This document shows positions 4,224 to 25,622 of a DNA stretch of 55,591 nt, piece by piece (within the stretch, counting starts at the first letter, position 1; each line of letters opens with the position of its first letter). Location of the stretch: the IMG/VR virus record IMGVR_UViG_3300032237_001108, positions 1-55,591 of that record, one strand, 5' to 3'. This DNA comes from a virus. The notes below the pieces were generated by a model, which was not told the DNA's origin, searched no databases, and worked only from the letters and a program-made list of their open reading frames with translations. A program made the translations under genes and the position numbers.

Positions 4224-4251
4224 GGCGGTTTGGCGGTGAATCCTCTGCGGC

Positions 4252-4261: not shown

Positions 4262-4329
4262 TCAGCCCAGCCACGCACCCCCGAACCCTCCCGCGTGCCT
4301 GTCTGGATCGGAATAGCTAACCTCAGGCC

Positions 4330-9441: not shown

Positions 9442-11580
9442 TTAGGGCTTTGGCTTGCGGGGCTTGCGGGGCTGCGCTGGCTCCTGCGCCAGTTGAAGCG
9501 CCTGCCGAATGGTGTCCTTGTCCAACAAGTTGCCAGACTTGACGCCTACTCCGTCTATCCCTTGAGATTTGATGAACTTTCGCTTGCTGTAATAGTTAAA
9601 CACCGCTTGCGCTTGCTGCTTTGTAATGCCGCCAAGTTTCTGTATCTGACCTGTCAACGCCTGCTCCGCTTGCACTCTCCTGCTGGCAATGTCCCTAAGC
9701 GCTGAGCGGGTTTCCTGGGGGAGCCTTGAGGGGCTGCGCGTTGGCTTTTGTGCTGCCGTCTTGCGCTTTGGCTTTTGATTTTCGCCGGATGGCTTGCGAT
9801 CGGGGCGAGGCTGAGCGGTTGGAGCCGGGATGCCGGGGCGAGACTGCGGAACGAACCCTTTGGGGAGAACGCTGCTGGTCATGCCCCTCTGCGGGCCGAT
9901 CCGTTTCACCCCACGCAGGAACTCAACTGCTCGCGTTGCGGTCACCTGGCCAATCGCTGCCCGGCCAGCCTGCTTCTTCGTTTCCGGCTGTGCCTTGATG
10001 CTCCGGTTGTAGTTGGCGATTGCCCTGGCCTCGGCTCGCTGCTTTTGCCCTTGCCTTCCGGCACCCTTCCTCCCCGCAATCGCCCCCACCTTCAACCCCT
10101 TCGGCTTCGCCACCGTCCCTGCCGGCCGTGCGGCCTTCATCCGGGGCCCGGCGCCCTTGGGACTGGGCTTGCGGGGGGTAGGCGCGGACTTTGCCAGGTA
10201 GTCAGCGAAATCAAGTCCTGTTTTTGTAAGCGCTGATTGCTCAAAATAGGCTCCATCCGGGCCAACGAGCCGACGCCTGCCATTTTGCACTTGGACTCTG
10301 TAACCCTTTTTGACAAAATCCTCAATAAGCGCTTGGCGAAATACGCCATTGCCATTATTTACCGTGTATTTTTCAAGGGCTGCGTTGGCTTTTGCTCTTT
10401 GCATCGGCGGCATTGAAGCCATGAAGTCTTTTCGTCGCTGCTCGCTGGCAGCGGCTTTAGCGTTAGCTGCCTTCTCTGCAGCGCTAAGCTGCTTTGGTGG
10501 AAACTTTTGCCGCCCTGGCTCTAGCGAATAACTTGGATCGAGTTTGAAGATTTTATCCCTTGCGGCTTTTCTGACTTCCAATGAATTGGAGCCGTTGTAG
10601 ATTATTTTTTCTAAATCAGCTTTTTGGCTTGCAATACTCTTGGGTGCGACTGGCTTTCCTTTTCGTGCAACCACCGTCCCCGCCGCTCTCCGCATAGCAC
10701 CCCCCAGTGCAGACCTGTCCGAGAACGACCGCGCCTTGCGGACCCTCACGTTGTCGGCCTTGCCGCTCAGGAGGTTGCCTTGGGCGACCGCTGCGGTCCT
10801 GATCCGTGCCGATCCCTTGGTTCCGGTCTTGACCCCATCGCCTGCGTATCGGCCGCCGTTGTACGACTTGCTGGCTGTGCTCTTTGTTGCCGCAGCCCGA
10901 TTCAGGTAAGCCTTGCCAGCTTCGGCCCTGGTCCTGAACGTGACGCGGCCACCGCCCTGCTTGGCCGGGTCATAACTGCCGGCCCTCATGCGGGCGTTTT
11001 GCGCCGTGCTGCGGACCCCGAAACGCTGCTTTGCGGTCTGCGCCTCTGCCCGCTGAAACTCGCTGAGCGTGGCCCGAGTGCCGACCTGGCTGGATGCCAG
11101 CGTTCTGTCCGTCTTCGGCTTGTAGCCCGCCGCCGCCGACCTTCCCCGCTTGTAGTTCTTGGGCGCCGCTGCCACCGGCTTGGCCGTGGTCACGCGCCCC
11201 CGCAGTTGGGACACGGCGCCACCCTTCCGAATCACCCCCGCCGGCCCCTTTCCAGTCATCCGCACCGTGGAGGCAGCCCGCACCTTCCCGAGCCGGTTCG
11301 CGCCCCTGGTGACCGCCCCTCTCTGCGCCCGCAGGCTCAGCGTGCCCTGCAAGCTGCGATCAGCCGGGTTCTTGGCGGCCAACTTGGCGCGGCTGCGGCG
11401 GAGGCTGCTGTGAGCCCCCAGCGTGCCGCCGGTGACCGTGGGCCGGGCCTTCCGCATGGCCGCCCGCCTGGTGGCCGGGGTGCTGCGCTTCGGGGGGCCA
11501 CCGCCGGGAGTTGAGGCAAAGCGCCCGCTGTTGTCGCGCACGTAGTTGGAGCGCCTGCCTCTACTGCCGCCGCGGGCCAT
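9442..11580 (-). CDS. Arginine-rich paralog ARP-2 (712 aa)
   Basis: MARGGSRGRRSNYVRDNSGRFASTPGGGPPKRSTPATRRAAMRK... Hinge RPAGTVAKPKGLKVGA at 10081-10128. AT-richer globular islands near 10200-10640 and 9480-9700. Confidence 0.7.
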   Translation of the reverse strand: MARGGSRGRRSNYVRDNSGRFASTPGGGPPKRSTPATRRAAMRKARPTVTGGTLGAHSSLRRSRAKLAAKNPADRSLQGTLSLRAQRGAVTRGANRLGKVRAASTVRMTGKGPAGVIRKGGAVSQLRGRVTTAKPVAAAPKNYKRGRSAAAGYKPKTDRTLASSQVGTRATLSEFQRAEAQTAKQRFGVRSTAQNARMRAGSYDPAKQGGGRVTFRTRAEAGKAYLNRAAATKSTASKSYNGGRYAGDGVKTGTKGSARIRTAAVAQGNLLSGKADNVRVRKARSFSDRSALGGAMRRAAGTVVARKGKPVAPKSIASQKADLEKIIYNGSNSLEVRKAARDKIFKLDPSYSLEPGRQKFPPKQLSAAEKAANAKAAASEQRRKDFMASMPPMQRAKANAALEKYTVNNGNGVFRQALIEDFVKKGYRVQVQNGRRRLVGPDGAYFEQSALTKTGLDFADYLAKSAPTPRKPSPKGAGPRMKAARPAGTVAKPKGLKVGAIAGRKGAGRQGQKQRAEARAIANYNRSIKAQPETKKQAGRAAIGQVTATRAVEFLRGVKRIGPQRGMTSSVLPKGFVPQSRPGIPAPTAQPRPDRKPSGENQKPKRKTAAQKPTRSPSRLPQETRSALRDIASRRVQAEQALTGQIQKLGGITKQQAQAVFNYYSKRKFIKSQGIDGVGVKSGNLLDKDTIRQALQLAQEPAQPRKPRKPKP

Positions 11581-12461: not shown

Positions 12462-13952
12462 TCACTTGACGGGCTTGTAGCGCTTGAGCCTCTTGGGCTT
12501 GCCCATCAGGGAGAGCTGGCTCATGCCAGTGTCTACGGCGCGGATGCGGGGGTTTTTCCGCATGATGCCAAACCCCAAAACGCCGGTTCTGACCCTGTTC
12601 AACGTGATCTCCCGCCGCCGCCGCTGCGACGCCCTCGCCTGGCTGCGAGTCCTGGCCACGGTTGTGGACACCTTCGCTTCCCGCTTCGGCTTGGAGATGG
12701 TCCCTTTGATTCTTGCGGCGCGAGCAAAACCCTTGCGCGAGGTGCCGTATCCCAATTCCCGGCGACTCCAGGCGCCGCCCCTTATTGCGTCCCTAGACAA
12801 TTTCGGCCTCTGCGCTTTCGCTTTTGCGGCTGCTGATTGATTGCCTTCTTGAATCCTGTCGCGTGCGGTCATTGCGTCCCTGCGGGCCTTGATCCGCGCC
12901 TTGTCCTGCCCGAGGTCATTAAACCGGCCGGGCTTGTTCCTGTTCGGCTTTTGCGTGCTGTATCGCGGCGGCTTTGTCATAGCCTTGCGCACAGAAGCAA
13001 AGGCTTCGGGCTGGCTCATCTGATTAAGCATCCCTACGCTGCCCCCTTCTTTCCTTGCCAGGAAAGACTTTGCCCTTGTTCCCACTTGGATAGCATTAAG
13101 GCGCTTGACGCCTGTTTTTTGTTCTGCGCCACGAACTACATTGTTGAGCCGGCCAATAACTCGTGACACCCTGCCATCGTCTACCCTCGCCTTTCTTTTT
13201 CCACGTGCTGGCTTTGCTGCAGTGCGGGCGGCTTTGGCCTGTTTGGGGGCGGCGAGCTTTGCGGTGGTCGCCTTCCGCCGCCCACGGGAAACGGTGCCAG
13301 GGATTGCGGGGGCCTTGGCCTTGCGCGAGCTTCCACCGATCGGTGACCCGATAGCGGTTCTGGCCCTGAGTGCTTTTATTGTTTTCTTTGTCCTTGCCGT
13401 GTCGATGTATTGAATGTCGCTTGTGCCCATCCGAAAGGCTCGCCTCATAAAGGCAAGCGTTGCAATTCTATTGTTTACTCCAAACTTTTGCTGTATGGCT
13501 TGAATGCCCTCTTTATAGCCTTTTGCAATTCTCCCGTTTAGCAGCAACGTGGGATCGTTGAACGTGTCACGTGCTCGTTGCGCCGCAGATCGCTGCGGCG
13601 CTGACAGCTTGACCGACTTTTGAGGCTTAACCGCCCCCTTCCTAGCCTTCCCCATCGCCCCCGGATCCCGCCGCACCCGGCCGCGCATGGTCCCCGCCAG
13701 CGGCGCCCGCTTCATCCGATCCAGCACCGCCCCCCGCTGATTCCCGGCGGCGGTCCTGAGGCGGCCACCCCGAGCTGTGGCGCCGTTCTTGCCCACGCCG
13801 GTGATCTTGCCGCTGTTGTCCCTGGTGATCCGGTTCGTGCCCCGCTGCGCTCGCCGGGCGGCGGGCTTGGCCTTGGCCGTGGTGGTGCCAGTCGAGGCGA
13901 AACGTCCCTTGCCATCACGGACATAGGTGCGGCGGGCGGATCTTCGGGCCAT
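12462..13952 (-). CDS. Arginine-rich paralog ARP-3 (496 aa)
   Basis: MARRSARRTYVRDGKGRFASTG...NRITRDNSGKITGVGKNGATARGGRLRTAAGNQRG. AT-richer island near 13380-13620. Confidence 0.7.
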   Translation of the reverse strand: MARRSARRTYVRDGKGRFASTGTTTAKAKPAARRAQRGTNRITRDNSGKITGVGKNGATARGGRLRTAAGNQRGAVLDRMKRAPLAGTMRGRVRRDPGAMGKARKGAVKPQKSVKLSAPQRSAAQRARDTFNDPTLLLNGRIAKGYKEGIQAIQQKFGVNNRIATLAFMRRAFRMGTSDIQYIDTARTKKTIKALRARTAIGSPIGGSSRKAKAPAIPGTVSRGRRKATTAKLAAPKQAKAARTAAKPARGKRKARVDDGRVSRVIGRLNNVVRGAEQKTGVKRLNAIQVGTRAKSFLARKEGGSVGMLNQMSQPEAFASVRKAMTKPPRYSTQKPNRNKPGRFNDLGQDKARIKARRDAMTARDRIQEGNQSAAAKAKAQRPKLSRDAIRGGAWSRRELGYGTSRKGFARAARIKGTISKPKREAKVSTTVARTRSQARASQRRRREITLNRVRTGVLGFGIMRKNPRIRAVDTGMSQLSLMGKPKRLKRYKPVK

Positions 13953-13972
13953 GGCGCTGACGGTGCTACCGC

Positions 13973-13982
13973 AGTTTTCCCG
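13973..13982 (-). promoter_or_regulatory. Motif I copy 6 (CGGGAAAACT)
   Basis: Exact 10-mer immediately after the TGA of ARP-4 and 20 nt upstream of ATG 13952 (ARP-3). Confidence 0.6.
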
Positions 13983-15455
13983 TCAGGGCTTGGGTCTTCT
14001 CACGCGGCTGCGGCGGCGTGGGGCAGGGTTTGGCGAGAGGCCCATGGCTTCTCGGTAGGCCCGCATCACCTGGAAGTCGTAGCGGCGGCCGGTCTTGAGG
14101 CCTGCGTAGGTTTCGGCAATGAACTCGGAGGGGCTGGTGGTGGCGTAGCGGCTGACGCGGTGAGCAAGCCTGGACATTTCATTGCCCCTTGCCACCCTGG
14201 CCTCTTGGCTTGGCCCCTTCTGCGTGGCTAACGCCCAGTATTGGCCAAACGGCGTAGATCGAGACAACAGATTCTTGTCCTTTGCGTGCCCCATTTCGTG
14301 GTAAAAGGTGTGCATAGGCGCAGAGCTTGATTTTGCCCCCCTTCTACGCTCTTGAATTGCAGACGCAGCAGGATTTACCCAACTGGTATGCGATCTATTG
14401 ATGGTCATTTGCTTTGTAACAGGGTTGTAACTCGCAACCGTACTACTGCCGCGACTGCTGTTGTATTTCACGGACAGCCCTTGACCTTCAAACATTGCCT
14501 TAGTCGCTTGCGCATTGGCAAGTCGAGCCTTCTTATCGTCATTCGTGGCTGATACTTGGTATCTCATGTTTGCAATACCAGCTTGATACGGATTCTCCCC
14601 CTTCCTCGGCCTTGCCATAGTCCCCACCGGCCGCGCCACCGCGTTCATCAGCTCCCCAGGCCTGAGGCGGCTGGTGGCGGGGCTGCGGAAGGCCTTGGGC
14701 TTCGGGGTGGCCTTGGGCTTGATCGCCCCTGGCTTGAGGCCCTTCGGCTTGGCGATGGTGCTACCAGGGCGAGCGGCGCGGGCCTTGAGGGTTGCCCGCC
14801 TGGGCGTGGTCATTGCCGCCCGAGCCCTCAGGCTGCGAGCGCTCGCCGCGGCGTCGGCGACGATCTGCCCCCGCTGCTGGGGGGTGAGCTTGTTCTTCCC
14901 TCGCGTCGGGCTGCTCCTCAGTCGCCCCACTTGGTCGTAGACGTTCTCCCGAACAAAGCGGGCATCCCCGCTGATCTTGTTGGCCCTGGTTAGCCGTGGG
15001 TAAGAGGGAACGGTCGCAGCCACACCAACGCCTGCCGCGGCAGTGGCGTAGGCCCTGCGAGCGGGCTTCTCAACGGTCTTCCACTGCTTGGCCAGCTTGT
15101 CCCGGTGCGCCTGGTCCGCTGCTGAGCGGTTGGCGATGCGTGAGGGAACCCGCGGGGCTGGCACTGCCCGCGCATTGCCGCTCCTGCTGACCACCCCCGC
15201 CAGCGGTGCCCGCTTCAGCTTTGCCGTCTGCGTCGCCCGCTGATTCCCTGCCCCAGTGCGGAGCCTGCCCCCTCGTGCGGTCGCCCCGTTCTTGCCGACC
15301 CCAACGATCCGGCCGGAGTTGTTGCGGCTGAGGCGGTTTGTGCCCCTGGTGGCCGCCTGCTTCGGGGCGGGGCGGGAGCGAGCCGTGCCGGTGCTGGCGA
15401 AGCGGCCCCGGTTGTCCCTGGCGTAGGTCCGCCTACCCCTGCTGCCGCCCGCCAT
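13983..15455 (-). CDS. Arginine-rich paralog ARP-4 (490 aa) with C-terminal zincin-like metallopeptidase domain
   Basis: MAGGSRGRRTYARDNRGRFASTG...NRLSRNNSGRIVGVGKNGATARGGRLRTGAGNQRA. Hinge GSTIAKPKGLKPGAI at 14721-14771. HTFYHEMGHAKD (HEMGH at 14286-14300) plus a downstream SEFIAETYAG gives an HExxH...E arrangement. Confidence 0.75.
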   Translation of the reverse strand: MAGGSRGRRTYARDNRGRFASTGTARSRPAPKQAATRGTNRLSRNNSGRIVGVGKNGATARGGRLRTGAGNQRATQTAKLKRAPLAGVVSRSGNARAVPAPRVPSRIANRSAADQAHRDKLAKQWKTVEKPARRAYATAAAGVGVAATVPSYPRLTRANKISGDARFVRENVYDQVGRLRSSPTRGKNKLTPQQRGQIVADAAASARSLRARAAMTTPRRATLKARAARPGSTIAKPKGLKPGAIKPKATPKPKAFRSPATSRLRPGELMNAVARPVGTMARPRKGENPYQAGIANMRYQVSATNDDKKARLANAQATKAMFEGQGLSVKYNSSRGSSTVASYNPVTKQMTINRSHTSWVNPAASAIQERRRGAKSSSAPMHTFYHEMGHAKDKNLLSRSTPFGQYWALATQKGPSQEARVARGNEMSRLAHRVSRYATTSPSEFIAETYAGLKTGRRYDFQVMRAYREAMGLSPNPAPRRRSRVRRPKP

Positions 15456-15476
15456 TGGAAACGCTGCTACTGCAGG

Positions 15477-15486
15477 AGTTTTCCCG
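15477..15486 (-). promoter_or_regulatory. Motif I copy 7 (CGGGAAAACT)
   Basis: Exact 10-mer, 21 nt upstream of ATG 15455 (ARP-4); followed by CCTGCAGTAG. Confidence 0.6.
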
Positions 15487-15497
15487 GCTTGCCTTGG

Positions 15498-16652
15498 TCA
15501 GTCCGTCAGCACCGGGAAAGCCCCAGTCCAGCCGCGCTCCGAATCCAAGAACCGCAGCAGTTGCTGAGGGCGCTCCGGGGCAAAGCCCAGTTTCAGGCCA
15601 TAGGCGGTGGGTCCGATCAGGCTGCCGTTTACTGACCAGCCGGTGCCCATGGTGAGCTGGTGGAAGTGCCCGAAGAAGCTGTGATCAGCCCTGATTCCCT
15701 GGTCCTGCCGGTGGACCCATTTCTGGAGGGGGATCGTCAGGCCACCGATGCCACCGCCGTAGCGGATCGCATCGCCATGGTGAAACCGCAAGACCTGCCC
15801 CAGCACTTCGACGTAGAGGATGTTGCCGTCGCTGATGCGCCATTCCAGGCGGGGCTCTCCCCTGTAATGCCGGCGCAGGCTCTGATACATCAGCCATTCG
15901 TAGCTGGTGGCGTGCGCGTTGTCGGCCTGCATCTTGGGGGTGGTGCGCCCGTGGTTGCCGTAACTGCAGGGGATCACGATGCGATCGAATCCGCCGTGCT
16001 CCAGCAGATGATCAATCCCAGCAACAATGGCCCGCTCGCATTCAATTATCTGTTGAGTTGGTGACAACTCCTGAAGCTGCGCCTGTTCAGGATGCAGCCA
16101 ATTATCTATTAAATCCCCGCCCAACCAGAGCACCATTTGCCGAACATCGCAACTACTGCGGACCATGCGGATCACCTTCAGTGCATTGCGAAACAGCGCT
16201 CCGGCTCGCCGGTGAAACTCGTCTATGTCGTAGGCGTTCAGGCCGTTCACTGATTCCGCCCGCACCACGGCGCCGCAGTGCCAGTCCGAGCACAGCAGGA
16301 TCGGCACCGATTCGGATCGATCCGCGTGATCCTCAACAGGTGTCAATGCGGCAGCCGGGGCGATCTCGCGAATGTCCAGGGCGGTGGTCAGGGAATCCAG
16401 CGTGGCCGCCAGCTCCGCAAGGGCTCTATCGCGGTCGCGCTCAGCGGTTCGAGCCACCTCCCTGATCTTGCGAAGCTCCAACTGCAGCGCCAGCAGCTCC
16501 TCAGACGTGTCGCTGCGCTTGCCGTTTGGGCACATGCCAGGCAGGCAAAACGGTCGGCGCTGACCGGCCTCCTCTTGCCACTCAAACGAGCTGTCGGAAA
16601 GCCAGGCCCTGCACGCCTTAGATCGCCGGCATTGGTAGGTGCGTTCAGCCAT
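15498..16652 (-). CDS. Calcineurin-like metallophosphoesterase with N-terminal Cys-rich/coiled-coil region
   Basis: Ordered MPE motifs: LLCSDWHCG, GGDLIDN, GNHG, HHGD, GHFH. The N-terminus YQCRRSKACRAW...FCLPGMCPNG is zinc-ribbon-like. Confidence 0.8.
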   Translation of the reverse strand: MAERTYQCRRSKACRAWLSDSSFEWQEEAGQRRPFCLPGMCPNGKRSDTSEELLALQLELRKIREVARTAERDRDRALAELAATLDSLTTALDIREIAPAAALTPVEDHADRSESVPILLCSDWHCGAVVRAESVNGLNAYDIDEFHRRAGALFRNALKVIRMVRSSCDVRQMVLWLGGDLIDNWLHPEQAQLQELSPTQQIIECERAIVAGIDHLLEHGGFDRIVIPCSYGNHGRTTPKMQADNAHATSYEWLMYQSLRRHYRGEPRLEWRISDGNILYVEVLGQVLRFHHGDAIRYGGGIGGLTIPLQKWVHRQDQGIRADHSFFGHFHQLTMGTGWSVNGSLIGPTAYGLKLGFAPERPQQLLRFLDSERGWTGAFPVLTD

Positions 16653-16693
16653 GCTTTTGGCAGCGATTCAGGCTGGTTGCCCTAGTTTTCCCG

Positions 16694-16703
16694 TGACTGG
16701 GAT
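16694..16703 (-). promoter_or_regulatory. Motif I copy 8 (CGGGAAAACT)
   Basis: Exact 10-mer, 41 nt upstream of ATG 16652. The spacer contains GCAACCAGCCTGAA, a near-copy of motif II. Confidence 0.6.
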
Positions 16704-16719
16704 TCCAGTATTGGCGCCC

Positions 16720-17787
16720 CTACCCCACCGGCACCGGCGCTCGCTCGATGTCGGGATACTGCCGCCGCTCGCTGGGGGAGGGCTTGCGCACGGCCTCCTC
16801 AAGCACCTGGGAGGCACGGGCGAACGGCCAGCCCTTGCCGGCGGCAAACTCTCGGGCGGCATCCTCGCGGGCCTTCTGCCAGTAGGCCTCGCGCAGCAGG
16901 GCGGCTCGCAGGGTGGGGTCGGCCTCCTCCACCGCTTCGGTGGCCACCGGGGAGAGGGAACACCGGCAGCGAGGGTGCCCCGGCGCCACGATCTCGTCCA
17001 ACCGGTAGATCCGGCCATGGCGGCTCGCGCACACCGGACAGGTCCGCTCATCCTTGGTGGCGATCCACCGGGCGTAGCCGAACCCGTTGCGGGCAGCGGC
17101 TGCCTTCTGGGCCCCCACGTAGGCGTTGGCCAGCTCACTGCGGGCGATCAGCTCAGCCCGCTGCTCCAGGCCCAGCCGGTTGTTCAGCCCCTGCGGATCG
17201 CGGGCCCCCTGCAGGGCGGTCCTGATCTCCCCCTCCAGCACGCGGGGCCCCTTCCCGCGCCCGATGCCATCGGTGACGATGCGGGCGATGCTGTCGCGGA
17301 AGCTCTCCACCTCGCCGCGGATGTAGGCGCTGGCGGTGCTGGCGGCGGCCTCCACGGCGGCCTTGGAGGCGCCCACGAACACGCCCTGCGCAGCCGCGTC
17401 AGGGTTGGCCGTCTGCGCGAGCTGCTGCCCCAGGTCACCGCCGAGGGCCACCGCTTCGGCAAAGTCCTCGCGGTAGCGGTTCTGGAGCCACTGCAGCTCC
17501 CGATCCGACGCGAAGGCTTGGGCCAGCTCCAATAGGCGCCGGAACTTGGCGGAGCCATCGGCGATCGAGTACGACCCCGGCCGGCGCGTAACCCCATCGG
17601 CGCTCTGCTGGTCGGGAAGCTCGGGATCCACGAACTGGCCGTAGAACCGGCGCAGATCCCGCAGGGTGCGAGCCAAGGAGCGGCGCAGGGCCGCCTGCGT
17701 GTTGCTGACCGAGCGATCGGCCAGGGTGTCCAAGGCGGCGGCGTAGTCGTCGGCGAGTTGGAGTTGTTGGTCGCCGATGGTGGCCAT
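16720..17787 (-). CDS. MuF / SPP1 gp7-like minor head protein
   Basis: WIATKDERTCPVCASRHGRIYRLDEIVAPGHPRCRCSLSPV is the classical Phage_Mu_F signature. The start lies 3 nt after the ARP-5 stop (TAACCCATGGCCACC). Confidence 0.85.
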   Translation of the reverse strand: MATIGDQQLQLADDYAAALDTLADRSVSNTQAALRRSLARTLRDLRRFYGQFVDPELPDQQSADGVTRRPGSYSIADGSAKFRRLLELAQAFASDRELQWLQNRYREDFAEAVALGGDLGQQLAQTANPDAAAQGVFVGASKAAVEAAASTASAYIRGEVESFRDSIARIVTDGIGRGKGPRVLEGEIRTALQGARDPQGLNNRLGLEQRAELIARSELANAYVGAQKAAAARNGFGYARWIATKDERTCPVCASRHGRIYRLDEIVAPGHPRCRCSLSPVATEAVEEADPTLRAALLREAYWQKAREDAAREFAAGKGWPFARASQVLEEAVRKPSPSERRQYPDIERAPVPVG

Positions 17788-17790
17788 GGG

Positions 17791-19266
17791 TTAGCGGTTG
17801 CGGGGCTTCTGGCGCTTGTTTGTCTCCTGTGTTTGCCGCTTTGCTTTATCTCTTAGCTGCTTGATTGCGTTTTGCTGCTGCCTTATCGCAATCCTTGCGC
17901 CAATGTACCTATCAGCCCTGTTCATTGATGCGTTAGAGCGTCTTTCTTTTGCCTTGCGTGATTGCTTTCTATTTTGGCCAATCTCTCCCCATAGGCCGAA
18001 CTTAACAACAGGATCAGCTTCATACGCTTTTTTTGCTGTAGCTTCTTCGCGTTGCAGTGTCGTGAGCTGCTTGCGAGCGTTGCGAATCTCAGCCGCCAGC
18101 GACTTTCGCTGATCTGTGCCGCGACCATACCCATACTTTGCGGGATCGTAGTTTAGTTCAATTTGCTTGAGCCTTTTTGATGCTCTCCTAAGTGATTCCA
18201 GTTGTTTATCAGCCTTTTGTCCTCTTGCAATCAGTTTAAGGTAGCGGGGGCTAAAGCCGCTTCCGCTTGAGGCTGGGGTGTTATCGCGATTCTTGGCGTT
18301 TTCAACTTTCCTGATTTCATCCAAAACGGCAGTTAATTTGGCGGTGATCTTGCCCTTAGCTGCGCTAATTCTTTCTTTCGTTAGCGGCTTTTTCTGTTTG
18401 CCAGCAGGCTTCTGCCGCTTGGCTGCCAGCGCCCCCGGCTTCAGTCCGCGAAGTTTGGCGATGGTGCCCCCTTGCCGGCCGGCCGTGACACGCTTGGGCG
18501 CAGCGGGCTTGGACGGCGCTGCCTTGCCCTTCCGCGCCACCCCGCCGACACGAGCCCCGCGGATCGTCCTGGCAGCGGTGCTAGGCGCGAGCTGCAAGGC
18601 CTTGGGGTTGTACTTCATGCGCCCCCTATTGCCCGTGGCCAGCCCAACCTTTAGGCGCCTTGCTGATTGGGTCATAGAGCGAGTAATCGCGTCAATCTGG
18701 CCAGGCGTTAATTTGTTCTTGCGCTTGCCTACATTGGCAATTAGTTGCATCCTTCCTTCGGAAAGATTGCTCAACTGTGCTGCTGTGTTTCCTGCAACGA
18801 CAAACTTTTGCTTGCGTGCTAGGCGCTCAACCTGTATTGCACGCCTGGCCGCCTTTGGCAGGGCCCTCAGCCTTCTTCCATGGTCTTTGCGGTGCCCCGC
18901 CATCATGGGATCGGTGCGGTCCTTCCTGGCCTCTGGCGACTGCATCCAGCCGACCGGCTTCTTGGCGGTGACCACCCTCCCCCGCACCTTCCCTCCCCTG
19001 CTCAGCACCCCCTGAGGCGCCCCCTTGAGGCGATCGGTCTGCCTTGCCCTGAGGTTCCCCGCCCCGGTGCGCAGCCGCCCCCCGCGGGCTGTGGCGCCAT
19101 TGCCGCTCACGCTTGTGATGCGCCCCGAGTTGTCCCGCGTGAGGCGATTGGTGCCGCGGCTGGCTCGCTTGGCCGGCGGTCGCTTGGGGGCCCCGCCGCC
19201 TGGGGTGCTCGCGAAGCGTCCGCGGTTGTCCCGCACATAGGACGTTCGGCGGGTTCCTCGGGGCAT
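17791..19266 (-). CDS. Arginine-rich paralog ARP-5 (491 aa)
   Basis: MPRGTRRTSYVRDNRGRFASTPGGGAPKR...NRLTRDNSGRITSVSGNGATARGGRLRTGAGNLRA. Hinge GTIAKLRGLKPGAL at 18427-18468. AT-richer coiled-coil C-terminus (17800-18420). Confidence 0.7.
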   Translation of the reverse strand: MPRGTRRTSYVRDNRGRFASTPGGGAPKRPPAKRASRGTNRLTRDNSGRITSVSGNGATARGGRLRTGAGNLRARQTDRLKGAPQGVLSRGGKVRGRVVTAKKPVGWMQSPEARKDRTDPMMAGHRKDHGRRLRALPKAARRAIQVERLARKQKFVVAGNTAAQLSNLSEGRMQLIANVGKRKNKLTPGQIDAITRSMTQSARRLKVGLATGNRGRMKYNPKALQLAPSTAARTIRGARVGGVARKGKAAPSKPAAPKRVTAGRQGGTIAKLRGLKPGALAAKRQKPAGKQKKPLTKERISAAKGKITAKLTAVLDEIRKVENAKNRDNTPASSGSGFSPRYLKLIARGQKADKQLESLRRASKRLKQIELNYDPAKYGYGRGTDQRKSLAAEIRNARKQLTTLQREEATAKKAYEADPVVKFGLWGEIGQNRKQSRKAKERRSNASMNRADRYIGARIAIRQQQNAIKQLRDKAKRQTQETNKRQKPRNR

Positions 19267-19297: not shown

Positions 19298-20818
19298 TCA
19301 GTTCAGCGGCAGTCCCTGCGCGTCCACGCCACCCCCTGCGAGGTCATTGGGGCCCGGCACCGGCGGGTTGTTGAGGGCTTGCTGGCGGGCATCCTCGGCG
19401 GCCAGTTCGGTGGCTTCCTTCTTGCCGTCCACACCAGGCCGGAGCATCCCGCGCTTCTGAGCCAGGTGCGTGACCGTCTCGCGAAGCAACAACCCTTTGT
19501 CGTAGAGCGTGCCGGCAAGGGTGAGCAGGGCATCATCCACGGGCTTATCGGTGATCCCCGGCAGCAGATCCAGCCCGGCGCCGGCTTGGGGCATCTCCCC
19601 GGTGAATGCGCCCCAGAGCTGAAACATGGATTCCCATGCGGAGCTCTTTGCTTCGGCCATGGTGGTGATCGTGGCCTGAAGCTGAGCCCCCTCCAGTTCG
19701 GCCTGTGTGGCGGTGCGGTTGCTGCTGCCAGAGAACAGGAACGACAGGGTGGAGCGATCAATCAGCTTCTCAATCTCCTGCAGATGCTGCAAATGCTTGT
19801 CCAGGCTGCCGCCGGAGGGTTCGGCAAACGAAAGCGACCCGTTGGGATCCTTGATCTCCACCAGGCTGTTGGGCCCCAGCGTCAGCGGTTGCCCCGGCGC
19901 CCTGCCGGCGTCCTTGAGCACCGTGACGGGCAGGGCGCAGCGGTGCAGGAGCTCCTTGAGGTCGCTGTACTCCCTAAACCAGTCCAGGGTGAGGTTCGCC
20001 AGCGACAGCAGGGGGATCCCACATTGCCCGAAACCATCGCGGGTGGCGCCGTACCAAACCACCGGTGGATGCTGCAGCGGCTGGCCGTTGGCACCGGTGA
20101 AGACGCCCTCCTGCGGGCGGCCCTGCTCATCGGTGGCTACCTCCACCTGATAGTTGGCCGAGGCGCCCTTGCCGCCGTCGCCCTTGATCTTGAGAAGGCG
20201 CCATTCACCGCCCCGCATCACGCGATAGCGCGGCTCCAGCTTCAGGCCGTAGTTGCCGTCTTCAACCTCGTGCCATTCAAGAACCGTGACGGCGACCGGC
20301 ACCCGCTTCCGGCCGACGCGGGCCACCCTCCAGTTGAGGACGTTGCGGCGCTCGGCCATAGAGAACACCGGTCGGCGGCCCTGGGCCAACTCTGCGGCCC
20401 TGCTCTCGGGCACCCCCGGCGGCATGTCCGCCATCAACAGGCAGCCGCCATCGCGAAGCACCAAGGCATCGGCGCCGAGGCCCCAGGCCTTGAGGCTGTT
20501 GCCCTCACCGTCAATGTCCTGGGCTGCCTCCAAAAGCCCCTTCTGCACCCCTCGAAGCTGATACCGGCTCAGCACCCCCGCAAAGGCGCTCACGCCATCG
20601 CGGAAGAACGACGGGTAACTGCTGCGCTTCAGGCGAGCCTGGTAGGCCTCCTTGGGCTCGCCGGCCTCCTTGGGGAGGTGCCGCAGCTTCGCATCACCCC
20701 GCAACAGTTCCCAGCAGTCCGCCACAAGGTCCAGGTCCGTCATGGACTCTGCCAGCCTGGGGTGACGGAATGACGGCAGATCGCCCTTATCGGTTGGATG
20801 GCTGATCTGCTGCCGCAC
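19298..20818 (-). CDS. Portal protein (DUF4055-like)
   Basis: 506 aa, located between terminase and MuF. The N-terminal AYQARLKRSSYPSFFRDGVSAFAGVLSR resembles portal proteins of this type. Call rests on position plus that similarity. Confidence 0.65.
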   Translation of the reverse strand: MRQQISHPTDKGDLPSFRHPRLAESMTDLDLVADCWELLRGDAKLRHLPKEAGEPKEAYQARLKRSSYPSFFRDGVSAFAGVLSRYQLRGVQKGLLEAAQDIDGEGNSLKAWGLGADALVLRDGGCLLMADMPPGVPESRAAELAQGRRPVFSMAERRNVLNWRVARVGRKRVPVAVTVLEWHEVEDGNYGLKLEPRYRVMRGGEWRLLKIKGDGGKGASANYQVEVATDEQGRPQEGVFTGANGQPLQHPPVVWYGATRDGFGQCGIPLLSLANLTLDWFREYSDLKELLHRCALPVTVLKDAGRAPGQPLTLGPNSLVEIKDPNGSLSFAEPSGGSLDKHLQHLQEIEKLIDRSTLSFLFSGSSNRTATQAELEGAQLQATITTMAEAKSSAWESMFQLWGAFTGEMPQAGAGLDLLPGITDKPVDDALLTLAGTLYDKGLLLRETVTHLAQKRGMLRPGVDGKKEATELAAEDARQQALNNPPVPGPNDLAGGGVDAQGLPLN

Positions 20819-21761
20819 CGGTGCCGCCTATTCCTGCTGGCTGAGTTTTCCCGCTCTCTTGGGGGTCGTGACAGGGGCTAAACAGCACCAACTGCTCCGC
20901 CGCCTGCAGGATCTCAGCGGCCCCTGTCAGCCGCCTGCGGGGGGAGCCCCCTGCCGCCTCGGTATCGCCCGCGGGAAGCTCCAGGGCCAGCGCCTGCTGT
21001 TCAGGGGTAGGGTTCAACCGCTCGCCCCGGATGATGCCTTGCGCCATGCGCAGGAACTGCCCATGCGGCATTCGCGCCAGTTGCCGCCGCTTTGGGGCAT
21101 CCCACGCCGCCTCCAGCATCTGCCGATCAGCCCAGCCCATCGCAGCGTGAGCCTCATCGGCGATCCGCATGGCCTCGTTCAGCTCATCAAAGCTCTCGAT
21201 CTCATCCCATGGATCGGGCTCGCGGGTGGCATGGAGGGCGTCAGGGTCCAGGCAGCGGGTTGCCCCCTGCGCTTCTAGGATCGCCTCAACCTCTGAGGCC
21301 TCCAGCCCGGTGGCCGTCACCACGGCCGAAAGGGTGGCCCCCTCCCCAGCCAGGCGCCGCACCGTGGGGGCCTTGTCGCGCCAGCGATCGGGGAAACGGA
21401 CCCCGCTGCTGTGCCCCTTGTCCCGCAACCACTGCGCCATAGCGCCTCGGATGAAGGGCACCACGCACGTGCTCAGGGCATAGGGGATGCCGGTGGTCGG
21501 GTTGAGCCGTTGAGGGTCATAGCGGCGGCAGCCCTTGAGCAGGCCCGCAGCGGCAACCAAGAACAGGTCATCGAATGGCATCCGGGTGGACCGGGCCATC
21601 CGGTTTGCCATGGACCGGGCCAGCAGGAGATTGTCTGCGGCCAGTTGCTCTGACCACGGCGTAGGCGCTGGGAACCTTCCAAGCCGCCCCAGATCAGGAC
21701 ACGGTTCAGGCCGGATCTTGGTGCTGCGGGCGGCCCTGGGGCGCCGTGTCGTAGCAGGCAT
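20787..21761 (-). CDS. Sigma-70-family-like protein with recognisable region 2/3 but degenerate region 4
   Basis: NLLLARSMANRMARSTRMPFDDLFLVAAAGLLKGCRRYDPQR..GIPYALSTCVVPFIRGAMAQWLRDKGHSSGVRFPDRW matches the sigma region 2 pattern (DL.Q.G.iGL..A...fDp..g..FstYA...Ir.ai...l). I could not see a clear region 4 HTH. Start set to ATG 21761. Confidence 0.55.
   Translation of the reverse strand: MPATTRRPRAARSTKIRPEPCPDLGRLGRFPAPTPWSEQLAADNLLLARSMANRMARSTRMPFDDLFLVAAAGLLKGCRRYDPQRLNPTTGIPYALSTCVVPFIRGAMAQWLRDKGHSSGVRFPDRWRDKAPTVRRLAGEGATLSAVVTATGLEASEVEAILEAQGATRCLDPDALHATREPDPWDEIESFDELNEAMRIADEAHAAMGWADRQMLEAAWDAPKRRQLARMPHGQFLRMAQGIIRGERLNPTPEQQALALELPAGDTEAAGGSPRRRLTGAAEILQAAEQLVLFSPCHDPQESGKTQPAGIGGTGAAADQPSNR
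20844..20853 (-). promoter_or_regulatory. Motif I copy 10 (CGGGAAAACT)
   Basis: Exact 10-mer, 25 nt upstream of the portal GTG at 20818, inside the 3' end of the sigma-like ORF (ESGKTQ). Confidence 0.6.
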
Positions 21762-21768
21762 GTTCAAT

Positions 21769-23406
21769 TCACCGGCGAATCAGACCTGATTTCAGTGCCA
21801 TTATTGCGTCATCTGACCATCCCTGCTGTCGCAAAGCATCAGCATCCACCGGCTGGGGTGTGGCGCCATGGCCCCAGGAAACGGTGCTGAAGCTCAGCGG
21901 GCCGGAGCCGATCAGATAGATCAGGAGCTGGCTGGTCTGATCAACAATGTCGTCAAAGGTGGCGGCAGGGAACTGGATCAACTGATCCACCACCTTGGTG
22001 CTCCAAGGGGCGGAGCGCGGCAGGAACACGCGGCCGGCGTTCACTTCCACGCTGGCGGCATTGGCGCGGCTCTCCTTGGACCCCATCGCCCCGGCGCCGG
22101 CCTCCACCACGCGGTAGCCATGGGCGGCAGCAGTAAGGGTCTTGATCACGGCGGCGCCGTTGGCCTTCTTCTCGATCAGGAGCTCCCCAAAACCATGCCG
22201 GCGGTGCATGGCCTTGATCATCGCCACGGTCGCCGGAAAATCAAGGCGCTCATCCACAAGGTCCAGCAGCCAGGCCCCCTCCACGGTCTGCCCCCACAGG
22301 CCCATGGCCACCATGTCGCTCCCTTCGGTGTTGTCAAAGCTGCAGTCCACCGACAGGATCGTGCGCAGGAACGACTGAGGCAGCGCCGCGTCTCCCTCGT
22401 CCCCAGGCCAGGCAGGGCAGCCGTAGAACCGCAGGCGATCCCGGAAGAAGATCGTGCCCTTGCCGGTGCTGGGGCGCTGCTGGTAGACGCTCTCCCAGTC
22501 GCGGTCTGGGGTGTTGGCCCGCTTGCGTTGGATCCACCGCTCGTTGAAGCGCTCCGGGTCCAGGGCTTCGCCGGGCTGGCGCGGGTCAGGCTCGCGGCTG
22601 ACAGTGGCCGGGAGCGGCTTGGCCTCGTGGGCAGGCACGGCCTCGATCGGCAGGCTGACCACGTGCCAGCGCTCGCAGTCGGCCTCCATGCCCTCCTTCT
22701 CCAGCTCCAGGTTCTTGCCGAGCAGGTAGCCGATCAGGTCGGCCTCATGCCAGCGGGTGTGAACCACCACCACCGACGCGCCGGGTTCTTCGCGGGTGCT
22801 GAGCACCGAATCCCACCAGTTATGGACCTGCCGCCGAAACGCGGCGCTCTCGGCCTGCTCGCGGCCCTTAATCGGGTCATCGATGAACAGGCGGTGTCCG
22901 GGCTTGCCGGTACCCTTGCCGATGCCCGCGGTCCAGTTGGTGCCGATCCCGTCAACGGTGCCCCATTCCTCCTTGCCCGAGAGGCTCGGCCGGAGGATTC
23001 CGCCAGAGGCCAAAAAGTACCCTTTCGCGTCATCCGAGAAGCCAACGGCAAGGTCTTGCGACTGGCAGCAGATGCCGTTGGAGCGATCGGGATAGCGCCG
23101 CAGGCAATAGCCCGGCAGGAACCGGCTGAAGATCGTGGATTTCCAGTGCCGCGGGGGAAGCTCCACCATCAGCCGCGGCAGTTCGTCATCGGCCACGCGC
23201 TGGGCCAGATCAATCAGCCGCAGGGTGTGACGGGTAAAGGGAAACCGCGGGAAAGACGTGGCGATGTAGGTCCGAAAGTCGGCGGTGTAAGGCTCCACAG
23301 CCGCTGGGATCGCCTCCTCTGCCGCCCTGGCCTCCTGCACCTCCCGCATCACGGGAAAGCCGCCCCAGTCGTTGGAGGCAGCGTGGTGCATGAGGTTCAG
23401 GGGCAT
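21769..23406 (-). CDS. terL: Terminase large subunit
   Basis: 545 aa. LPPRHWKST (P-loop-like), HRLFIDDP and HTRWHEADLIGYL are typical TerL ATPase/nuclease motifs. TGATG junction with dcd. Confidence 0.85.
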   Translation of the reverse strand: MPLNLMHHAASNDWGGFPVMREVQEARAAEEAIPAAVEPYTADFRTYIATSFPRFPFTRHTLRLIDLAQRVADDELPRLMVELPPRHWKSTIFSRFLPGYCLRRYPDRSNGICCQSQDLAVGFSDDAKGYFLASGGILRPSLSGKEEWGTVDGIGTNWTAGIGKGTGKPGHRLFIDDPIKGREQAESAAFRRQVHNWWDSVLSTREEPGASVVVVHTRWHEADLIGYLLGKNLELEKEGMEADCERWHVVSLPIEAVPAHEAKPLPATVSREPDPRQPGEALDPERFNERWIQRKRANTPDRDWESVYQQRPSTGKGTIFFRDRLRFYGCPAWPGDEGDAALPQSFLRTILSVDCSFDNTEGSDMVAMGLWGQTVEGAWLLDLVDERLDFPATVAMIKAMHRRHGFGELLIEKKANGAAVIKTLTAAAHGYRVVEAGAGAMGSKESRANAASVEVNAGRVFLPRSAPWSTKVVDQLIQFPAATFDDIVDQTSQLLIYLIGSGPLSFSTVSWGHGATPQPVDADALRQQGWSDDAIMALKSGLIRR

Positions 23407-24080
23407 CAGACCTTGGCCAGGGTCACCCCAGCCGCCTGCCCCTGATACTTTCCGGCCCCGTAGGGCTGGTCACAGGGCACCCCTTCAAAGAACAGGGCCT
23501 GACAGATGCCCTCGTTGGCGTAGATGCGGCAGTCGGCGCCTGATGAATTGCTGATCTCCACGGTCAGGTGGCCCTCCCAGCCGGCCTCTCCGGGGGTGAT
23601 GTTGACGATCACCCCGCAGCGGGCGTAGGTGCTCTTGCCGATGTAGAGGGCGGTGACGTGCGGCGGCAGGGCTTGGCGCTCGATCACCACGCCGAGGGCG
23701 TAGGTGTGGGCTGGAAGGATGAAGAAGGCGCCGTAGCTGTCCCACTGCAGCTCGGCCGGGGCGAGGCAACGATCATCGAAGGCCTTGGGATTGACGATCA
23801 GGCCAGGAACGTGCCGGAACACGCGGAAGTCGTGCGGGGCCAGGGTGAGGTCGTAGCCGTAGGAGGAGCAGCCGTAGGAGATCGCCGCAGCGGCAAGCTG
23901 GCTGGCCCCATCGGCTGTCTCCCCGGCGATGATGCGCCTGACCTTCCCCGGCTCAAACGGGCTGATCATGCCCTTGGCGGCAAACTCGCGGATGCGCCAA
24001 TCAGGCATGGAGCCGCCGCGGTTGGCAAGGCGGATGGTGCCGGTGTTGGGAAAGAATGCCTCCCTGTCGTTGTCATTCAT
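23406..24080 (-). CDS. dcd: dCTP deaminase family protein
   Basis: SYGYDLTL, GKSTYARCGVIVNITPGEAGWEGHLTVEISN and YGAGKYQGQ match the Dcd/dUTPase-superfamily signature. Confidence 0.85.
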   Translation of the reverse strand: MNDNDREAFFPNTGTIRLANRGGSMPDWRIREFAAKGMISPFEPGKVRRIIAGETADGASQLAAAAISYGCSSYGYDLTLAPHDFRVFRHVPGLIVNPKAFDDRCLAPAELQWDSYGAFFILPAHTYALGVVIERQALPPHVTALYIGKSTYARCGVIVNITPGEAGWEGHLTVEISNSSGADCRIYANEGICQALFFEGVPCDQPYGAGKYQGQAAGVTLAKV

Positions 24081-24301: not shown

Positions 24302-24879
24302 CTCGCTCGTGGCTCGTAAAAATCACAGTCGGGCGCGAAAATCGGAAGACGGCCCCTCCTCTCGGGCACGCCCTGAGAGCAGGGATCAGCGCCGCCGCGC
24401 CAGTGCCGGCAGTCGTGGCAAACCAACCCCCCGGCAGGCGCAACCAGCGGCACTGGCGGGGCGGCTGGGGGCTGGGCGGCGCCGTGCTGGCGGCCCAGGT
24501 CGTAGCAGGCGCGGATGGCGGGGCCAAAGCCATGCTCTGAACCATCGTTGTAGACCCTACACAGCTCCTCATCCGTGACCACCGGGGCAGCCTCGGGGGT
24601 GGTGACCATTTTCGTGGCGCCAGGAAAATGGTTGGCGTGCGGCTGCTGCTGCGCAGCCTCCAGCGCCATGATCCGCTTCAGGTGATCGTCAATCCAGCGC
24701 ATCAATTTGTCCACGTCTTTGCCCCATTCCAGAGTGGCCAGTCTCTGGGTTTCGTATTTCCGCTCCAGCGCCTCCACCCGCTCCAGCAGGTGCAGCAGCA
24801 CATGGGAATAGGCGGCGCCCTCAACAGCGGCGGACTGGTAGAGCCAGGCCAGGGTTTCGGGGGGTAGTGGCTTGGTCAT
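24298..24879 (-). CDS. Hypothetical protein (193 aa), Cys-rich C-terminus
   Basis: ATGA overlap with the stop of the pentapeptide gene. No family recognised. Confidence 0.55.
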   Translation of the reverse strand: MTKPLPPETLAWLYQSAAVEGAAYSHVLLHLLERVEALERKYETQRLATLEWGKDVDKLMRWIDDHLKRIMALEAAQQQPHANHFPGATKMVTTPEAAPVVTDEELCRVYNDGSEHGFGPAIRACYDLGRQHGAAQPPAAPPVPLVAPAGGLVCHDCRHWRGGADPCSQGVPERRGRLPIFAPDCDFYEPRAR

Positions 24880-25622
24880 GCCTCCACCTCAGGCCGCGCC
24901 ACCACCGACCGCAACCACTCGGTAGCGGCCTCGTTGTCGTCGTAGAAATGGCCGTGAGCCTCGGTGCCTCCGAGCATCAGCCCGGCGACTTCCGAGCCAA
25001 CTGCAGCCTCCAGCAACCGGCCCACCTCTCCGGCCTGGTCAATCAACCAGCCGCCAATGCCGTAAGCGGTGGAGCAGCTGTGACACGTTTTCATCTCCAA
25101 CGCACCATCAGCAAGCGCTGCAGTGGCGGCAGCCCTGAGCCTCTGGGGAGCGTCGGCTGCGATGGCCAGCCCCAAGGTCCCGCTTAGGTTGGCGCCGCTC
25201 AGGTTGGCGCCGCTCAGGTTGGCGCCGGTCAGGTTGACGCCGCTCAGGTCGGCGTCGGTCAGGTCGGCGTCGGTCAGGTCGGCGCCGGCCAGGTCGGCGT
25301 CGGTCAGGTCGGCGCCGGCCAGGTTGACGCCGGCCAGGTTGACGCCGGCCAGGTTGACGCCGCTCAGGTCGGCGTCGGTCAGGTTGGCGTCGGTCAGGTT
25401 GGCGCCGCTCAGGTTGGCGCCGCTCAGGTTGGCGCCGATCAGGTTGACGCCGCGCAGGTCGGCGCCGATCAAGTTGGCGCCGATCAAGTTGGCGCCGATC
25501 AGGTTGGCGCCGATCAGGTTGGCGCCGGTCAGGTTAACGCGTTGACCCTCCGGGTCGAAAGCGAGCCAGCGGACGTGGCTGGCGAGGATTTCGATCAGGT
25601 TGATTGTGGATGGTTCAGCCAT
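24876..25622 (-). CDS. Pentapeptide-repeat protein with a non-repeat C-terminal domain
   Basis: About 24 consecutive A(D/N)LxG-type pentapeptides (GANLIGANLIGANL...DADLTDADLSGVNLAG...) followed by a roughly 100-aa unique domain. Confidence 0.9.
   Translation of the reverse strand: MAEPSTINLIEILASHVRWLAFDPEGQRVNLTGANLIGANLIGANLIGANLIGADLRGVNLIGANLSGANLSGANLTDANLTDADLSGVNLAGVNLAGVNLAGADLTDADLAGADLTDADLTDADLSGVNLTGANLSGANLSGANLSGTLGLAIAADAPQRLRAAATAALADGALEMKTCHSCSTAYGIGGWLIDQAGEVGRLLEAAVGSEVAGLMLGGTEAHGHFYDDNEAATEWLRSVVARPEVEA
25184..25540. repeat. Tandem 15-bp near-identical DNA repeats (coding for the pentapeptide array)
   Basis: caggttggcgccgct / caggtcggcgtcggt / caggttgacgccggc units repeat head-to-tail across about 360 bp. 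Confidence 0.9.

Follow-up and report, generated by a model that had tools for sequence, protein, structure and literature searches.

We identified in the window, the whole 55,591-bp public contig (64.2% G+C) of IMG/VR virus record IMGVR_UViG_3300032237_001108, a minus-strand phage gene whose product, ARP-4, joins a polycationic leader to a predicted zincin metallopeptidase domain. Residues ~290-475 of ARP-4 probably form a catalytically competent gluzincin of the anthrax lethal factor (LF) kind, which would enter the cell with the genome and cut proteins early in infection, its targets being most probably host-facing. The middle of this domain differs between sibling phages as a sharply bounded cassette. 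As far as our literature searches show, such an exchange of a catalytic core together with a leader-based architecture is undescribed. The parts of the gene and its product are as follows (aa, amino acids; related loci and proteins are cited by L and P numbers).

13983-15455, minus strand: ARP-4 open reading frame (ORF), 490 aa, ATG start, with leader, helical insert, disordered linker, predicted zincin domain and polybasic tail; G+C at third codon positions 0.74
15216-15455, minus strand: polycationic N-terminal leader, residues 1-80, RTYARDNRGRFAS ... NRLSRNNSGRIVGVGKNGATARGGRLRTGAGN, common to five paralogues
14766-15215, minus strand: optional insert, residues 81-230, with two helices (108-142 and 192-215) confidently predicted by AlphaFold2
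14589-14765, minus strand: disordered linker, residues 231-289, with conserved motifs STIAKPKGLKPG and PATSRLRPGELMNAVARPVGTMARPRKGENP; 95% DNA identity to L022
14031-14588, minus strand: predicted zincin (gluzincin) metallopeptidase domain, residues 290-475, from AlphaFold2, Foldseek and profile comparison with the PDB
14286-14300, minus strand: HEMGH, H386/E387/H390, predicted to provide two zinc ligands and the general base; invariant in 38 homologues
14145-14147, minus strand: Y437, in register with Y728 of LF, present in 129 of 133 domain copies, with the Y-x6-E spacing of LF
14112-14126, minus strand: EFIAE, residues 444-448, on helix 442-454, with E444 as predicted third zinc ligand and E448; aligned with E735/E739 of LF
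14157-14605, minus strand: exchangeable cassette, residues ~284-433, comprising helix 1, the sheet, the HExxH helix and a variable insert; no detectable DNA similarity to siblings
13986-14030, minus strand: polybasic C-terminal tail NPAPRRRSRVRRPKP; like tails close the other ARPs

The first-pass annotation had placed a zincin-like domain at 13986-14600, a span that corresponds to residues 286-490, and its reading of the translation is correct (SSAPMHTFYHEMGHAKDKNLL and TTSPSEFIAETYAGLKTG; MHTFYHEMGHAKD, with HEMGH at 14286-14300; and SPSEFIAETYAGL). The switch from polycationic to globular composition that it described is real: in a composition count, R+K falls from 23.2% over residues 1-285 to 14.2% over residues 286-475, and aromatic residues rise from 2.8% to 8.9%. 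The 15-residue tail (476-490) contains 46.7% R+K and 0% aromatics. Between the two motifs, said to lie about 50 residues apart, the distance from H390 to E444 is 54 residues. HEMGH is the sole HExxH among the 77 ORFs of the predicted window proteome, compared with 0.19 expected from composition, and it is invariant in homologues; therefore, its occurrence in ARP-4 is more than chance. The exact ARP-4 protein occurs in public metagenome collections, always under the name 'hypothetical protein'.

AlphaFold2 modelling of residues 286-490 with 37 sequences gave a predicted local distance difference test score (pLDDT) of 88.8 and a predicted template modelling score of 0.86. The modelled elements run in the order helix, three strands, helix, HExxH helix, variable segment, two helices and E444/E448 helix. 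Those before the active-site helix (helix 308-324 and strands 328-332, 341-344 and 349-353) have pLDDT >90, HEMGH (386-390) lies on predicted helix 382-392, and E444 lies on the helix that begins at residue 442. The full-length model shows the same fold with pLDDT >90 over about 290-475, leaves residues 1-106 and 217-280 disordered (pLDDT <50 for 217-280), and gives a mostly disordered leader with two weak hairpins. A linker docked on the domain as pseudo-substrate or propeptide found no support, since this model leaves the linker disordered. The predicted N-terminal helix, three-stranded sheet, HExxH helix and Glu helix constitute a zincin core, so that structure prediction supports a zincin fold for residues ~290-475, as the first-pass annotation had proposed. 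The same core has been described for the metallopeptidase (MPTase) domains of phage polyvalent proteins (PMC5512222).

In Foldseek comparison with the PDB, 19 of the 22 top matches are zincin-fold proteins, namely IrrE/PprI, SPRTN, minigluzincins and anthrax LF, with IrrE/PprI as the best solved structures (E 0.09-0.25). The other three are M. tuberculosis transcriptional-regulator entries, and MATCAP and BlaR1 appear further down. Among the predicted viral structures of BFVD, the domain matched a 'Lethal factor' of Siphoviridae sp. (E 8.6e-5), a 'Metalloprotease' and several 'Minor capsid protein' fusions. The best BFVD match by TM-score is R4T736 of Halogranum tailed virus 1 (TM 0.52-0.56); a Cellulophaga phage 'structural protein' and ART-PolyVal/LPD proteins were also found.

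A relation to the LF-like gluzincins is supported by sequence register. A profile of 34 sequences of diverse domain copies (A3) matched in the PDB 4l7a, named 'uncharacterized protein' by its depositor (E 0.0026), the LF fragment 2l0r (E 0.0049) and LF itself, 1j7n (E 0.051). The alignment sets H386/E387/H390/Y437/E444/E448 of ARP-4 against H686/E687/H690/Y728/E735/E739 of LF (chain coordinates 684-741). In LF, H686, H690 and E735 are the zinc ligands, E687 is the base and Y728 takes part in catalysis. By this correspondence, H386, H390 and E444 of ARP-4 would bind zinc, E387 would act as general base, and Y437 and E448 would be supporting residues.

Curated families were approached from below their thresholds. 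The Pfam families most frequent over the 34 relatives are M91 (8/34, best E 0.0019) and ATLF (6/34, best E 9.5e-4), followed by M90/MtfA (5/34, best E 0.001), all sub-threshold. The tandem copy P0070:337-484, which matches the hidden Markov model (HMM) of the domain at 7.6e-21, comes close to ATLF (1.5e-5, 25.2 bits versus a 27.4-bit cut-off). ARP-4 itself gave no ATLF match at E <= 1 (gathering cut-off 27.4 bits) and scored 13.2-15.3 bits on M91 against a gathering cut-off of 25 bits. A single-sequence Pfam search of ARP-4 returned nothing significant, Peptidase_M91 being the nearest peptidase (E 0.11); a Glyco_hydro_32C match (E 0.034) was judged to be chance. Neither phmmer of the single sequence against the PDB nor NCBIfam returned a match for ARP-4, and the 34 relatives gave only scattered chance matches to NCBIfam. 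No match was obtained to Pfam MPTase-PolyVal (PF18818; E <= 1 for ARP-4, E <= 0.1 for the 34 relatives) or to M78 (ImmA/IrrE; E <= 0.1 for ARP-4 and all 34). The nearest PHROG is phrog_28013, 'virion structural protein' (E 0.027), which 6 of the 34 relatives match (best E 1e-5). Thus, the LF/MtfA/toxin-type assignment first put forward is supported by the HExxH and Y-x6-E-x3-E in LF register, by the sub-threshold M91, ATLF and M90 matches and by the zincin fold of the structure prediction; membership of those curated families is not supported.

ARP-4 shares the HExxH and Y-x6-E-x3-E in the same register with the LF catalytic domain (MEROPS M34, Pfam ATLF PF07737). Unlike LF, which contains protective-antigen-binding and VIP2-like domains and is delivered through a pore-forming toxin partner, ARP-4 has only its leader, helical insert and zincin domain and would be delivered by phage injection. 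NleD-type effectors (Peptidase_M91) and MtfA (Peptidase_M90) are likewise small single-domain HExxH zincins of the lethal-factor-like group. However, NleD is a type III secreted effector and MtfA a cytoplasmic regulator-binding peptidase.

The predicted catalytic residues are conserved throughout the family. With the C-terminal 203 aa as query we retrieved 41 metagenomic proteins (E 1e-115 to 4e-15), all named 'hypothetical' and without a Pfam domain. In a 38-sequence alignment, H386, E387, G389, H390, Y437, E444, F445, A447, E448 and 15 more positions are invariant. A profile search of 1.84 billion representatives gave 2011 matches at E <= 0.001, many of them leader-only proteins because that profile spanned the N-terminal leader as well. 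A domain-only HMM recovered 133 near-full-length copies among the retrieved proteins. HExxH plus Glu is kept in 131 of these 133, and by position the first His is present in 132, the Glu in 133, the second His in 132, the Tyr in 129, E444 in 131 and E448 in 133; the motif is lost in one copy, P0102:82-263. The HExxH is therefore conserved, and the first-pass annotation, which had named a lack of such conservation as grounds for refutation, is not refuted on this point.

Mean pairwise identity among the 38 homologues differs strongly by segment, being 70% in the leader, 49% in the linker, 28-29% in helix 1 and the sheet, 56% in the HExxH helix, 25% in the variable insert and 76% in the C-terminal helices. 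The insert at residues 81-230 is missing from most homologues and is replaced by a PARP-like segment in L022. Public gene calls of ARP-4 homologues are often wrong: P0001 (264 aa; L004:9724-10795) is called from an internal Met though the leader sits in the same open frame, and P0030 (L024:5092-6864) is lengthened by read-through into a long Pro/Ala-rich stretch. Against GenBank phages, neither megablast with the 12 kb surrounding the gene nor tblastn with ARP-4 gave a match. With a polyvalent-type copy as tblastn query, only the haloarchaeal viruses HGTV-1 and BLv36 were matched, at KC292026 (Halogranum tailed virus 1) 120139-120423 and OQ850970 (Halorubrum tailed virus BLv36) 22870-23118; among isolated viruses, sequence similarity to the ARP-4 zincin family is detectable in haloarchaeal tailed viruses alone.

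Comparison with sibling phages revealed the exchange of the catalytic core. L022 and L026 share with the window 100% aa identity in TerL (only partly covered in both), 96.6% and 96.4% in the portal, 97.5% and 95.8% in MuF, and 97.1% and 95.6% in the exonuclease, respectively, and 48% in the zincin core in either case. L026 DNA is 93.2% identical to the window over 14606-17778 and 92.5% over 13690-14156, and shows no detectable similarity over the ~450 bp between (14157-14605). The same gap, with boundaries within about 20 nt, is present in L022 (14177-14583), L024 (14168-14587) and L006 (14174-14599), and the flanks are 92-95% identical in DNA to the sibling phages. At the protein level, residues 1-283 and 430-490 are nearly identical to a sibling protein and enclose an indel-rich, catalytically intact allele (HEIGH).

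This pattern extends over the family. The cores of the 38 homologues fall into 24 clusters at 70% identity, and in 97 of 703 sequence pairs the C-terminal region is >=85% identical and the core <50%. Phages whose MuF is 87-97% identical to that of the window have core identities of 93, 77, 54, 51, 49, 48 and 40%. Within the allele class of the window, the ratio of nonsynonymous to synonymous substitution rates (dN/dS) is 0.07-0.15 in the core, below that of leader, insert and linker (0.10-0.44), and the core dS exceeds the flank dS in 2 of 3 comparisons (L010 and L011). By this measure the core is under strong purifying selection, and rapid positive selection on it is ruled out by the ratio within one allele. 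Therefore, its diversity arises by replacement with old alleles rather than by rapid point substitution. Comparison of window positions 13690-14176 with L001, L002, L022 and L026 shows that, in distant relatives, the last ~190 nt at the 3' end of ARP-4, encoding the Tyr/Glu helices, is better conserved in DNA than the portal and MuF genes: it is 82% identical to L001, in which portal and MuF are 66-69% identical to the window. This suggests extra constraint on the 3' end or repeated homogenisation at a recombination flank.

The zincin domain of ARP-4 has relatives in much larger proteins. In proteins of 900-5045 aa the domain HMM finds from one to six copies (E 1e-11 to 1e-25), accompanied by Phage_Mu_F, ADPrib_exo_Tox, Peptidase_C39_2 and 2H-type domains. 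P0138, P0112, P0070 and P0157 (MuF, weak) carry two to four copies each, with E down to 1e-21. The large proteins listed are:

P0092, 5045 aa: five copies at E <= 1e-7 and a sixth at 2.6e-5
P0138, 3032 aa: two copies at E <= 1e-7, with Phage_Mu_F and Peptidase_C39_2
P0112, 2087 aa: three copies at E <= 1e-7, with ADPrib_exo_Tox
P0070, 1407 aa: three copies at E <= 1e-7, with ADPrib_exo_Tox and sub-threshold ATLF
P0144, 1631 aa: two copies at E <= 1e-7, with a sub-threshold 2'-5' RNA ligase-like match

Judged by sequence, the domain family is the same as the zincin MPTase domains of phage polyvalent proteins. Iyer, Burroughs, Anand, de Souza and Aravind (2017) found the zincin MPTase to be the commonest domain and main network hub of these proteins, which carry one to five copies and are encoded among late genes (PMC5512222). 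They read MuF fusions as evidence of head packaging, and allowed for three roles: autoprocessing either before or after packaging, or action as an effector on host proteins (PMC5512222). A 2026 preprint reports, from proteomics of phi24B virions, a polyvalent protein of 2811 aa that contains a metallopeptidase domain. ARP-4 resembles the polyvalent-protein MPTases in its zincin core, its late or virion gene neighbourhood and the open question of autoprocessing versus effector function (PMC5512222). In contrast to polyvalent proteins, ARP-4 is short, has a single recognisable enzymatic domain without MuF, portal or ArdC-N fusion, carries a polycationic leader in place of such fusions, and lacks the strand-2 His of one widespread phage clade of these MPTases.

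The ARP-4 orthologue of L022 (L022:4975-6600, 542 aa) has another insert, YHGT...GVYGSGVYSS, between leader and zincin. This insert matches Pfam PARP at E 8.3e-5, its 22.6 bits falling short of the 26.7-bit cut-off, and is a possible ADP-ribosyltransferase (ART) module on the same carrier.

ARP-4 is encoded among head genes and is one of five ARPs. On the minus strand the order is TerL, a sigma-like ORF, portal, ARP, MuF-like gene, metallophosphatase/'exonuclease', ARP-4, ARP, small ORFs and the ARP at 9442-11580, followed by further ORFs, a tail protein and the ARP at 2019-4274. A scaffold, a major capsid protein and the integrase and recombination genes lie elsewhere in the window. The neighbours and other genes listed are:

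21769-23406, minus strand: TerL
19298-20818, minus strand: portal protein, phrog_145 at 2.4e-67, with DUF4055 in homologues
17791-19266, minus strand: ARP paralogue, 491 aa, same leader, without zincin
16720-17787, minus strand: MuF-like minor head protein, PHROG minor head protein at 3.9e-26, with Pfam Phage_Mu_F in syntenic homologues
15498-16652, minus strand: metallophosphatase-type 'exonuclease' between MuF and ARP-4, phrog_284 at 1e-47, weak Pfam Metallophos
12462-13952, minus strand: ARP paralogue, 496 aa, with leader
9442-11580, minus strand: ARP paralogue, 712 aa, with leader
2019-4274, minus strand: ARP paralogue, 751 aa, with leader
40374-41762, minus strand: serine integrase
35332-36615, plus strand: RecT
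38741-39880, plus strand: exonuclease VIII-like protein

Each of the five ARPs carries a net charge between +78 and +151 and closes with a polybasic tail, and all share a leader of ~75 residues, RTYxRDxxGRFAS ... NRLTRDNxGRI..VG.NGATARGGRLRTAAGN, with two RDNxGR[F/I] hairpin-like repeats and invariant Y, R, D, G, R, F and other positions in 43 proteins. Pfam recognised zero families in these 43 leader-bearing proteins. A search of the literature on arginine-rich phage proteins, internal or ejected, gave no counterpart of the ARP leader, and another, on phage proteases resembling lethal factor or on roles in anti-defence, gave nothing of relevance. The motif 'GT[IV]xKP[KR]G[LM]KPG' occurs in 3 of 219 ORFs of >=80 aa, all three of them ARPs. 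Related phages have three to five leader-type genes each, and the leader precedes the zincin wherever the related sequence is complete. L006 has two zincin-bearing ARPs, one of 776 aa between portal and MuF (L006:6533-8863, HEIGH at residue 683) and the 321-aa P0025 after MuF (L006:10001-10966).

Of 26 IMG/VR loci, 24 have the zincin gene next to MuF and/or portal, as do four long metagenome contigs (L001, L002, L004, L006), in the order portal, zincin-ARP, MuF or the order MuF, (exonuclease), zincin-ARP. The 'exonuclease' gene is optional, being present in the window, in L022 and L026 (95-97% aa identity) and in L011 (51%), and missing from L004, L006, L012-L015 and L024. Between TerL and portal, a 326-aa ORF (20787-21767, minus strand), whose homologues show weak or faint Sigma70_r2/r4 matches, may encode a phage sigma-like factor or a small terminase with a helix-turn-helix. 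Upstream of the terminase are a dCTP deaminase gene (23406-24080, minus strand), also found beside the portal in Synechococcus phage S-CBS2, and a gene for a pentapeptide-repeat protein with long ANL[ST]GANL[ST]G-type runs (24876-25622, minus strand).

The integrase, RecT and exonuclease VIII-like genes suggest a temperate phage with its own recombination module. By portal, the nearest isolates are the cyanosiphoviruses S-CBS2, PSS2 and S-CRES1-3 (33-36% identity); the annotated region downstream of the S-CBS2 portal holds no comparable genes. The only match in GTDB genomes was to a Cyanobacteriota metagenome-assembled genome. An uncultured temperate siphovirus with a cyanobacterial host is a plausible, tentative assignment.

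This arrangement recalls other phage proteins that carry variable cargo. MuF-fused polymorphic toxins of temperate phages (Jamet et al. 2017, PMC5576092), T4 internal proteins and P1 Dar proteins likewise combine a conserved head-association module with variable cargo, have their genes beside portal and MuF, and have cargo swapped between close relatives. ARP-4 differs in that its carrier is a basic disordered leader rather than a MuF domain or a 10-residue capsid-targeting sequence, and in that what is exchanged is the middle part of a single domain whose two flanks are conserved. It also has no adjoining immunity gene.

We infer zinc binding, proteolysis, packaging, injection and substrate in the following scheme. 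The leader would bring ARP-4 into the head or onto the DNA, ARP-4 would enter the cell along with the genome, and the protease would cut protein substrates early in infection. These would most probably be host-facing, with the exchangeable catalytic-core cassette matched to target diversity; the phage's own basic proteins may be cut too. Packaging is suggested by the adjacency to portal and MuF, the MuF- and ART-fused homologues and a weak match to the PHROG 'virion structural protein'. The half of a zincin that normally forms the substrate cleft consists of helix 1, the sheet and the segment inserted between the catalytic helices. A host-facing target is favoured because this half is swapped while leader, linker and the other ARPs stay 90-95% identical, and also because the L022 orthologue carries a PARP-like ART segment where its leader meets the zincin part; ART plus zincin on one carrier is a typical effector combination.

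Several points weigh against an injected, host-directed protease. The Foldseek matches to the PDB are weak (best E 0.09, none <= 0.001), ARP-4 lies above no Pfam, NCBIfam or PHROG threshold, and the arrangement of the catalytic site is predicted from the element order of the model and the sequence register. Packaging, injection and substrate are read from gene context; ARP-4 has no MuF domain of its own, and the packaging role of the ARP leader is a guess. Finally, the cassette exchange could be ordinary modular recombination between conserved flanks and not selection by host targets.

Autoprocessing is an equally classical expectation for such a domain, and there is some chance, which we rate as rather low, that the zincin is a self-processing or maturation protease that cuts only phage proteins and has no host target. 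Its own linker and/or the other four ARPs would be cleaved at sites of the 'GT[IV]xKP[KR]G[LM]KPG' type, inside the head or just after entry, and the cuts would free or activate fragments or strip the DNA of its coat. For the polyvalent-protein MPTase, Iyer et al. put forward autoproteolysis as its principal role, citing the processing of DdrB of phage P1 (PMC5512222). Linear motifs common to the ARPs amid low-complexity sequence and the unusually conserved linker upstream of the domain are consistent with this, and the extra ART-like module upstream in L022 might need release. No canonical prohead protease came up when the window's other large structural ORFs were scanned with Pfam and PHROG; this is weak evidence, as most of the scanned ORFs have no annotation at all. 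However, a dedicated protease would be expected to be conserved together with its substrates, whereas the siblings' ARPs, leader and linker are ~90-95% identical and their cores 48%; moreover, AlphaFold2 shows no docking of the linker (pLDDT <50, 217-280) on the domain.

We find it very hard to credit a cytoplasmic, non-packaged anti-repressor of the ImmA/IrrE kind that cleaves a repressor to turn lysogeny into lysis, even though IrrE/PprI are the best solved-structure matches and the phage, with its serine integrase, appears temperate. The gene lies in the portal/MuF late module and not by integrase or repressor, the domain is fused to a leader common to four other late-module proteins, and its homologues sit in MuF/ART polyvalent proteins. 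On this gene context and the lack of any M78 match at E <= 0.1 in ARP-4 or its 34 relatives, we reject the ImmA/IrrE reading. Just as improbable is an enzyme of cell-envelope penetration that cuts peptidoglycan peptide stems or envelope proteins for DNA passage, a role that the phi24B preprint proposes for the metallopeptidase domain of gp47, a virion protein. In ARP-4, motif and register are those of protein endopeptidases (LF, NleD, MtfA) rather than of any known family of peptidoglycan peptidases, and the phage encodes an endolysin separately. Among isolates, the closest portals belong to siphoviruses, which need no ejected envelope-spanning conduit, and the highly cationic leader fits association with nucleic acid better. 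An inactive, purely structural zincin-like fold that keeps HExxH for stability is barely credible: the motif loss in P0102:82-263 indicates that inactive copies can exist in tandem arrays, but ARP-4 retains all six positions of catalytic type, each of which is conserved in 129-133 of the 133 copies, and purifying selection on the core is strong.

A bolder form of the injected-protease reading, which we regard as improbable though worth stating, takes the five ARPs as a protamine-like genome-coating set and ARP-4 as a DNA-tethered LF-like protease acting at the entry site, with its substrate-binding half drawn from a pool of ancient interchangeable alleles. If this were true, ARP-4 would destroy DNA-targeting host defence or nucleoid proteins, or strip the coat for transcription. 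The alleles (>=24 clusters) would be swapped by recombination between the invariant linker and the Glu-helix region, as a protease counterpart of receptor-binding-protein cassettes.

Taken together, the domain of ARP-4 is of a kind already known from comparative genomics, as zincin MPTases occur in phage late-module and polyvalent proteins; no curated model covers the ARP-4 family itself, and public data name every member 'hypothetical'. We know of no phage zincin domain with a known substrate, and the choice between self-processing and attack on the host has stood undecided since 2017. No module is commoner than the zincin domain in the polyvalent proteins of phages and plasmids, and ARP-4 offers a simple test object for it: a short protein bearing a domain of ~190 residues that is modelled with confidence and has clear predicted catalytic residues. 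The natural allele swaps in otherwise isogenic phages should allow alleles to be mapped to hosts or targets, in metagenomes and in vitro. Moreover, the analysis flags an abundant polycationic phage protein family as candidate internal or ejected proteins of cyanophage-like siphoviruses.

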